Origin: Octopus vulgaris
Taxonomy: Eukaryota
NCBI GenBank assembly: GCA_951406725.2
Contig: OX597822.1
Span: 434,001 to 498,000 of the forward strand
Reading direction: 5' to 3'
Length of the DNA stretch: 64,000 nt
Below are positions 25,123-31,421 of this stretch, piece by piece; position 1 is the stretch's first letter, and every line of letters begins with the position of its first letter. Position numbers and translations under genes: made by a program. The notes under the pieces are model-generated. The model was given only the letters and a program-made list of their open reading frames with translations. It made no database searches and was not told the DNA's origin.

Positions 25123-25414
25123 CATACATACATACTTACATACATATCTATCTATCTATCTATCTATCTATCTATCTATCTATCTATCTATCTATCTATC
25201 TATCTATCTATCTATCTACGGACGTGCTGTCACTTCGGCTCCGAAGGTAATCGTTTATTTTGACTATTTATAGCCCAATTTTTGTGTACATTTTTGTAAA
25301 TAAGGTGTGTAAGGCAACCAACTTTCGTTTGAGTACTTTTCCAAGGGAGGAATTCGCCCCTAGGGCAGTTTCAACCCCATTTCATTTCTGTAATTTTCTT
25401 CTCGACATTAGAAA

Positions 25415-27308
25415 ATGTCGAGAAATTTTATTGTAGAACGCTGGTCGCGTTCCTTTATGGACCAGCATTTTCCTAGTTTGGAAACGCTAGGAGAGGAAAA
25501 AAGAACACATGCACGCAAAGTGCAAAAATGAATATCGTTGGAATGAACGCTGCAACTACGTGCGGTAACAGCCCTGTCACCACCACCACCAAAACCACTA
25601 ACAACAGCAACCACGAGACTACTACTGCTACCACCACCACCTCCAGCACCACCACTACCACCACCACCACCATGACCAACATAAATGATAAAAATAAAAC
25701 TCACACGAAAACTATTGACAAAAACAACAGCAACAAGAACAACTATAAAAATGAACTATCTAATAGTGAAGATGTTAATATAACAGAATTAACAGCACCA
25801 ACAAATTTCGCTGACACTCTGCGTCAGAAGAAATAGATTATACATTTCACGAACGAAGAACTTTTAGAAACAAGATCTCTCTTTACAACCAGAGGGCAAG
25901 ATTTAGTGCTACATACACCTCAACACATAAAGCAAGAAGTAGAAAATAAGACAATTATTTATAAAATTATAAGAAAAAACAAAAAACTAAATGAACAGAT
26001 TACAAAAACGGATGTAGAAAAATGCTTAAAAAGCATAATGAAAAAAAAAGAATACATAAACTGGGGTCCCCAGTTTAACACAGTAGTGGTCCGCTTCCCT
26101 AACCAGGAAGTGGCAAAAGCTCACTCTACTGAGTCTTTGGAAAATGATGATATCATCATGGTCCCATACTACAAAAATCAGAGAGTGAGTCGAATCACTA
26201 TTAAAAATGTACCCCCCGACATTCCTAACAAATGGATAACAGGGGCAATCTGTTATCATTTGAAAACTATCAATATTTTGGAAACCGCCGTGTACCTAAA
26301 CGACAATTGGGGTGGAAAAACTATAGTGGTGACCATACAGATTGAGGGGGCCTCTATCGAGAGCCTACCGGATAAGATCCACTTGGAAAATGGGCAAAGC
26401 CTATATATTATAGCAGAAGGCAAAAAACCTAGATGCTACAACTGTGGCAGCACCGAACATTTAATTGCCAAGTGCGATCTGGTACAGAAAAAACAAGAAA
26501 GAACAAATCAGAAAACAAATAAAAACCCTTGTTGCCAACACCAACACCAGCACACTCAATTATGGAACAATGCCAAGAAAAACAACAAACCAGCAAACAA
26601 ACCCCAACAACATCACCAAGAAAAGAAACAGTACCAACACAATCACCGTTGACGTCACAACCAATTCAACATGTTGAATCAACAAAAAATAGACCAACAC
26701 CCACACCGAGGACGACAATTAAAAAGACAGAAAACACTGACGAGAAGACAAATTCTACCCCTAACACCACAACAACACAAACACCGCACAAAACATCAAC
26801 AATTTATACAAGCATACATAGTAATGCAAATGCTTTGCCTCTACCCCATACTGATACGTCGGATCACGAAAGTTCGACGGAATGGCAAATAGCCACAGGG
26901 GGTAAAAGGAAAAGATCCAAAAAATCCACCAAACAAGGAAGTAAAGCAGGAAGATATTTAACTCCGGACAACATCCCCCTAGACAATCAAAAAAGCAATG
27001 AACCCGTAAAACTACATACATAACTAACTACAATAGACACAGACAATAAAGAATTAATGGACTACATCACATCCAACACGGTAATCTGTGAAGATGACTT
27101 TAAGACAAACAATCATCCGCACACCACACCACCGAAACACATCAGAATTTTACACATAACACAAGCACAACACCACATACTGAAAACAATATTTCCGAAT
27201 GCGGTAGGCGGGTTTCAACGATACCTGTCGAAAAAACTATACAAACACCTCATCAAAGACAATACAAAAGAAGAAGAAAAAAATGAAACTTTTGAAATGA
27301 GTAAGTGA
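25415..27308 (+). pseudogene. LINE ORF1 (T/N-rich N-terminus, RRM-like region, CX2CX4HX4C zinc knuckle, basic motif)
   Basis: MSRNFIVERWSRSF; RITIKNVPPDIP; RCYNCGSTEHLIAKC; WQIATGGKRKR; broken by stops (25834, 27021) and frameshifts. Confidence 0.88.
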
Positions 27309-27365
27309 CCTCACTTCTTGCCTCTTGTCTCTTCTAATATAGTGTGTAAAACACAATTTTCGTAA

Positions 27366-30300: not shown

Positions 30301-30810
30301 GAAATCCCTGGCTTGGCAGTATAACGAGACGCACTACCTGTTCGAGAGAAGAGCTACAGACACGGTTCGAAAACCATCACCGGACCGACCTGCCCGAGAT
30401 GCGGTCAGAGCGACGAAACCGTTCTGCACGCACTCGTGCAGTGTCCAGATATTTCAGAGCTGTGGTCCTTCGTCGAACAGCTGTTGTCACGTGTAGGTCG
30501 GGCTCGCCTATCGGCCGAGTCTATCGTGAATATTGTTCCACCACCTTCCTTTAAACGGGAAGGGAAAACGGTTTTCGTTACGCTGATGGCTATGGCGAAA
30601 GAATGTGTGTGGTGGACGCGTTTGAAAGGACTGCAAACAAACACATTCCTTTCTGGTCAGTCTCTCGTCAACTTTTTCAAGTACCACTTGAAAAGGAGGA
30701 TGAGAATAGAGAGGAAGGCTTTGTCGAACGAATGTTTTAATAAAAAGTGGGTAAAAGTGGCAAAAATGGTCAGTATGAAAGACGACACTATTTTAAGCAT
30801 AAATCTGTAA
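27366..30810 (+). pseudogene. LINE ORF2: AP endonuclease, reverse transcriptase, C-terminal zinc finger
   Basis: NARGL, ISETR, GDWN, YLDRI, TDHK, YWKLN, KSPGLDG, FRPITLLNADLKI, DQSKAFD, RQGCPLS, AYADD, CPRCGQSDETVLHALVQC; nonsense at 27720, frameshifts near 29615 and 30322. Confidence 0.95.
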
Positions 30811-31095
30811 CCAAAAGAGACAACGAGAAGTAAGCCGACTTACTCATGTGTTCTTTTTCGAATTGTCTGAGGTGACCTTGGTCTTTTTTGTAGGTTTTTC
30901 TTTCCAAGGCTACACCTAAACTGTGAACCTTATATATATATATTGCTTTTTTATACACCACACAACCCACAGATCCCTATTGATCAAACGTTTTTTTTTG
31001 TACCCCACCCATCCCACCACGAAAAGAAAAAATTCTACATTGTATTTCGTCCATTTTTATTCTGTGTTTAGCCCTGTGTGGCTACAATAAAAAGT

Positions 31096-31421
31096 TATCT
31101 ATCTATCTATCTATCTATCTATCTATCTATCTATCTATCTATCTATCTATCTATCTATCTATCTATCTATCTATCTGTCTGTCTGTCTGTCTATCTATCT
31201 ATCTATCTATCTATCTATCTATCTATCTATCTATCTATCTATCTATCTATCAGTCTGTCTGTCTGTCTGTCTGTGTATCTGTGTGTCTGTCTGTGTGTCT
31301 GTCTGTGTGTCTGTTTATCTATCTATCTATCTATCTATCTATCTATCTATCTATCTATCTATCTATCTATCTATCTATCTATCTATCTATCTATATATAT
31401 ATATATATATATATATATATC
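31096..31421. repeat. (TATC)n/(TGTC)n/(TA)n array
   Basis: Direct reading. Confidence 0.97.

Follow-up and report, generated by a model that had tools for sequence, protein, structure and literature searches.

Octopus LINEs of the L1 group sit mostly in (TATC)n/(GATA)n microsatellites in a single orientation and register

Throughout the 2.8-Gb genome of Octopus vulgaris, a family of LINEs sits mostly in (TATC)n/(GATA)n microsatellites, in a single orientation and a single repeat register. We consider it probable (roughly 0.8) that this pattern reflects an L1-group lineage with four 3'-end subfamilies that is placed in (TATC)n arrays, likely by an APE endonuclease nicking the GATA strand and by priming of reverse transcription there. 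Judging from the insertion pattern, the endonuclease is itself likely to be specific for the GATA repeat.

Copies in the window and their subfamilies

The window, i.e. the whole stretch of 64,000 nucleotides that was analysed, lies on contig C9 and holds two copies of the family, as well as a fragment of an older sister family, E, that served as a control:

17810..19900 (approximate limits), - strand: family E fragment, older sister; relatives have (ATT/ATC)n directly 3'
25145..25218, + strand: (TATC)n array 5' of copy 1; perfect, 18.5 units, probably mostly target DNA
25219..31095, + strand: copy 1, full-length LINE of subfamily A, defective
25415..27308, + strand: ORF1 of copy 1; N-terminus rich in Thr and Asn, single CCHC knuckle
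27366..30810, + strand: ORF2 of copy 1; APE endonuclease, RT and zf-RVT
31086..31095, + strand: 3' end of copy 1, AATAAA (31086-31091) and AAGT (31092-31095), no poly(A)
31096..31418, + strand: compound TATC/TGTC/TA array 3' of copy 1; first unit TATC, in register
59701..59815, + strand: (TATC)n array 5' of copy 2; 28.8 units, with a CATC variant common to other full-length copies
59816..64000, extending past the window, + strand: copy 2, subfamily B, defective

In agreement with the original prediction, both copies start directly after a long array, in the same orientation and register: the first letters of copy 1, CGGACGTGCTG at 25219, lie directly 3' of the 18.5 units, and the 28.8 units upstream of copy 2 close with ...TATCCATCTA, copy 2 starting at 59816 in the register of copy 1. 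The end described for the complete copy, AATAAA-AAGT-(TATC)n without poly(A), is likewise what we see. The real 5' end of the window copies is a few bases into the apparent array, and the final few bases of 25145-25218 are likely the element's own 5' end. Identity between the two copies is 88% across their first 450 bp and 78% across ORF2. Stops and frameshifts make both defective; in copy 1, ORF1 is interrupted near 25835 (stop) and near 26530 (frameshift), and ORF2 by a stop at 27720-27722 and by two frameshifts. The 3' end of copy 2, outside the window, reads AATAAAAGAAAGT and is followed by TATC. Just past the window (G000:C9:497000-506000, locus L100) lies a train of the form B-(TATC)n-C-(TATC)n-A, in which the middle C copy is truncated and the last A copy full-length; similar clusters are found on contigs C22 and C1. 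The window also holds a 600-bp GATA/TATC array (48589-49319) with no adjoining element of this LINE family.

Copies fall into four 3'-end types, each followed by TATC: A (AATAAAAAGT), B (as in copy 2), C (AATAAAGAAACT) and D (AATAAAGAAACA). In an RT tree of A, B, C, E and other octopod-level matches, the first three form one group (support 0.98) to which neither family E nor those other matches belong. Exact C/D 3' ends number at least 8,529 genome-wide. For the 5' end, a 28-nt A/B motif has 219 exact matches and in-register TATCTATC-N12-start sites number 292; at least 48 of the 67 comparable places of the former set recur in the latter. The 5' starts of A and B are near-identical and three loci (L085, L171 and L191) are apparent chimeras with two subfamilies inside one insertion, which together suggest that template switching or exchange of 5' UTRs may have taken place.

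Arrays at the junctions of the elements

From the best 40 matches to each of three 3'-end queries we removed the queries themselves and followed the remaining 117 copies in the upstream direction; one duplicate, one copy with an N gap and one whose 5' end lay beyond its locus were excluded, and four junctions were placed by hand. An array was called when at least 4 TATC units fell within 40 nt, a state that holds for the preceding 40 nt of 1.1% of window positions by chance (1,434 of 127,920, both strands). At the 3' end, 106 of 116 copies continue with in-register TATC and 98 of 116 with a TATC array. Upstream, the array precedes 58 of 62 full-length copies and 41 of 52 5'-truncated ones (A 5/7, B 3/8, C 33/37). 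Among 114 copies, 84 have the array on both sides, 111 on either side and 3 on neither; for comparison, the available text of PMC4494074 calls a LINE microsatellite-specific when one repeat occupies more than 20% of its flanks. The main samples consist of best-scoring matches. A second one was chosen by position on contig C1 (26 of the 86 in-register C/D places among the first 100 listed), and here the array stands at 18 of 25 resolved 5' junctions, with 3 more carrying 3 units. The original prediction held that the family targets (TCTA/GATA)n and named as its refutation that most truncated copies should lack the array at their 5' junction; with 41/52 and 18/25 against 1.1%, the opposite is the case. 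Contigs from two other studies, which speak to presence only, connect the array with the element at 12 distinct truncation points. Contigs of four public runs at one locus (L127:960-1560) yield no empty allele, but none spans the stretch, the left flank of which is a high-copy repeat.

The tabulation of flanks and register that had been proposed as a check gives the same picture genome-wide, with W-TATC next, in register, at 7,483 of the exact C/D 3' ends. That copies merely inserted at random and were retained in microsatellites of a repeat-rich genome is highly improbable: the window is indeed microsatellite-rich (152 TRF rows), but orientation and register are fixed in 88% of the 8,529 ends, TA arrays, though more numerous in the window than TATC arrays (56 versus 21), are seldom used, and the sister family favours another repeat. 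The register bias refutes such passive accumulation, and the rare use of the more numerous TA arrays indicates that the TATC preference is real.

Insertion specificity is nevertheless leaky, extending to TA repeats and TAT sites. Out-of-register ends make up 12% of C/D 3' ends. We inspected all 14 of them among the first 100 listed, in overlapping categories: 4 sit within TA arrays, TAT still follows the end in 7, 4 have an upstream TATC array and 1 is reversed, in a GATA array. At L366, a C/D copy is followed by (GATA)n, i.e. the opposite orientation. Of the truncated copies, 11 of 52 have no upstream array; several of these adjoin other repeats and may have been disrupted later. Two full-length copies (L012 and L188) have an upstream (TC)n array, L188 with TATC downstream as well, as expected if they had inserted at the edge of a compound microsatellite.

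The arrays appear to belong mainly to the target, not to the element's cargo. At L214 (13-16 bp), L129 (13 bp), L084 (14 bp) and L080 (16-20 bp), the array lies outside target duplications that hold unique letters, at L214 on the upstream side only, and copies inserted off-array have no repeat tail, as at L176 (8-bp duplication), L200 (17-bp duplication) and L210 and, among C/D copies, at L360, L362, L363 (9-bp duplication) and L391. An element carrying a (TATC)n tail might instead seed the arrays, in the style described for lepidopteran RTE elements in the accessible part of PMC2887409. The arrays at 98 of 116 3' ends and the few repeat-like bases at the 5' end of full-length copies would fit such seeding, but it gives no account of pure arrays at the 5' junctions of 41 of 52 truncated copies, nor of loci where the array is only upstream (L104, L108, L177 and L214) or absent (L176, L200 and L210). 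We regard seeding as very unlikely, and the arrays at truncated 5' junctions largely refute it. Thus, the earlier suggestion that the element may seed or extend its arrays finds no support as regards seeding, and extension is seen solely as the 8-20 bp target duplication.

In one respect the element does carry repeat. Among 69 distinct A/B 5' ends, the presence of TGTCTA upstream is associated with a marker inside the element (8/11 with versus 1/58; Fisher p = 1.7e-7). The sequence TCCATCTA is seen 8 times in the same set. Full-length copies thus inherit 6-12 bases that resemble the array. The alternative raised at the outset, that the repeats are carried by the element itself, accordingly appears to fail for most of the array sequence, given the duplications and the tail-less copies, and holds for these ~6-12 bases. 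The start of the RNA likely lies in the upstream array, and pairing between RNA and target may add to the role of the endonuclease.

Copies of different subfamilies accumulate within single arrays, with a same-strand neighbour directly upstream in 25 of 117 and directly downstream in 24 of 87 copies. The upstream neighbours are at best 75-97% alike and 4 have no partner. Since they differ, trains are built by repeated insertion, and co-mobilisation of a train as a single transduced unit is ruled out.

Coding capacity and the sister family

The family is, by its predicted proteins, a two-ORF APE-type LINE of the L1 group. Among 40 loci scanned, ORF2 (1149 aa) is intact in two (L062 and L078) and ORF1 (~625 aa) in two, one of which, at L089, encodes 623 aa. 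ORF2 consists of an N-terminal APE endonuclease, an RT and a C-terminal zinc-binding motif, matching PF03372, PF00078 and PF13966, the last slightly below its cut-off. In the PDB it matches human L1 ORF2p best (E = 6.6e-58, residues 7-874; R2, 1e-19), L1 and R2 being the only full-length RT comparators. Residues N11, E40, Y115, D144, N146, D205 and H230 align with active-site positions of human L1-EN. D145 and H230 are given as active-site residues of L1-EN in PMC1950540, as far as its text was available. ORF1 shows a weak zf-CCHC match only (E = 0.0035, below cut-off), with no match to the RRM and Transposase_22 profiles; an ORF1 with CCHC and without Transposase_22 is, going by the part of PMC5203782 at hand, consistent with Tx1 but not diagnostic of it. 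The nearest named proteins among the homologues listed come from Argonauta hians (69%) and cuttlefish (45-51%), and no named Tx1, Kibi or Koshi protein appears among the 240 homologues listed, the 10 clusters or the atlas matches. The Tx1 label is therefore plausible, with sequence comparison reaching as far as the L1 group. Eighty metagenome loci, mostly 25-32% identical and too distant to be informative, include one with a TATC/GATA array.

Family E, with an ORF2 ~50-65% identical to that of the TATC-array family, provides a separate observation: represented by the window fragment and by L305-L354, it displays a second microsatellite preference within the same lineage. Of 29 copies picked by their 3' end, 23 carry at least 5 ATT/ATC units there, and a TATC array is absent from all. 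On the 5' side the repeat is rarer, at 5 of 26 resolved ends, and 4 of the 20 longer loci have (ATT/ATC)n where the element starts or close by; targeting by family E is therefore less well shown. The hairpin loop of the endonuclease reads NR[VI]GSS in A, B and C and mostly NHSGSS in E. In the available portion of PMC1950540, this loop affects the nicking preference of L1-EN, while loop grafts failed to move specificity in a modular fashion; the loop difference is thus only a lead. The differing targets of the sisters, the intact ORFs and the two-residue difference in the loop render a change of APE specificity directly testable.

Proposed mechanism and relation to known systems

Truncated junctions end in all four repeat phases with 0-4 nt of microhomology, and the marks of TPRT are present: 5' truncation, target duplications of 8-20 bp and 5' microhomology, the latter of at least 1 nt in 22 of 38 junctions (41% expected). 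One copy, L212, has a 5' inversion. The APE endonuclease would nick the GATA strand of a pre-existing array at GATA^GATA, a position deduced from the register, with ATA^ as a relaxed core suggested by the off-target TAT and TA-repeat sites, and reverse transcription would be primed at the nick. Transcription would begin within the upstream array and continue past AATAAA for a few UAUC units. This signal lies 4-7 nt from the end of the element. Since cleavage typically takes place 10-30 nt downstream of AATAAA, the RNA should end within the array, with UAUC units able to pair with the target; such pairing would explain both the absent poly(A) and the in-register ends.

It is also conceivable, but unlikely, that RNA-DNA pairing is the main determinant of the target, a loosely ATA-nicking endonuclease being guided by read-through UAUC units at the 3' end and by array bases at the 5' end. 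Consistent with this are the lack of poly(A) and the proximity of AATAAA to the end, the array-like bases inherited at the 5' end, the TAT common to off-target sites, and the pairing reported for SART1 and R1Bm in the accessible sections of PMC7265360. Conversely, off-array insertions with clean duplications, as at L200, need little pairing, and the endonuclease loop differs along with the target between the sister families. Pairing and endonuclease targeting, the reading that we prefer, are not mutually exclusive. A more tentative reading is that the target is partly written by the element's own flank, such that pairing at both ends and a retuned endonuclease loop lock a lineage to its repeat, with changes of target, from (ATT/ATC)n to (TATC)n or the reverse, among the sister lineages. 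If this is true, the two would form a natural paired system for a change of microsatellite specificity, and the TATC-array family would be the first GATA-repeat-targeting retrotransposon, which may also drive an abundant SINE that shares its 3' tail.

The insertion strategy is a known one, of the Kibi/Koshi type, while the TATC/GATA target is apparently undescribed in the literature searched. As reported in the parts of PMC4494074 and PMC3812793 available to us, Tx1 elements target (TC)n (Kibi), (TTC)n (Koshi) and, in crocodilians, (TTCC)n/(TTTC)n. These are, like the present family, APE-type LINEs of the L1/Tx1 group that insert into microsatellites, but their units are pyrimidine-only, whereas ours is TATC/GATA, in a cephalopod lineage with thousands of copies; the likeness to Kibi and Koshi is one of insertion habit. 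Waldo on (ACAY)n, also a tetranucleotide, Mino on (AC)n and Dong on (TAA)n (PMC3812793), along with Togen on (TG)n (PMC4640811, both as far as excerpted), are similarly microsatellite-targeting non-LTR elements, but of other clades and with other repeat units. SART1Bm and R1Bm resemble the family as APE elements residing in repeats, with RNA-target annealing proposed at initiation, but belong to the R1 clade, and SART1 copies carry a poly(A) tail, unlike those of the TATC-array family (PMC7265360, in part). Human LINE-1, whose ORF2p is the nearest solved structure by sequence and shares the EN-RT layout and catalytic residues, differs in its poly(A) tail, its weak TTTT/AA preference and its type of ORF1. 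A repeat annotation of Octopus vulgaris lists 13 recent L1-Tx1 families, and the word 'target' is absent from the portion of that source available (PMC13282606). Literature searches found no family targeting GATA/TATC; Repbase and Dfam lay outside their scope, and prior annotation there is possible. The known microsatellite-targeting LINEs are few, and the finding extends them by a repeat target and by a mollusc lineage with a high copy number (at least 8,529 3' ends); genome annotation and marker design are affected, many TATC loci being flanked by this family.

Finally, a scan of the window with ARAGORN gave no tRNA. A SINE-like repeat lies at 37975-38205 (+ strand), with further copies at L017 and L307. 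A TATC array comes next in L017, and none in the window and L307. The final ~45 nt of this SINE-like repeat can be aligned with the 3' ends of the LINEs through the pattern TTTGTCCC..TCTGTGT.TAGCCC..TGTGG..TAAAG, and this shared tail suggests that the repeat may be mobilised by the TATC-array LINE lineage or a relative of it.
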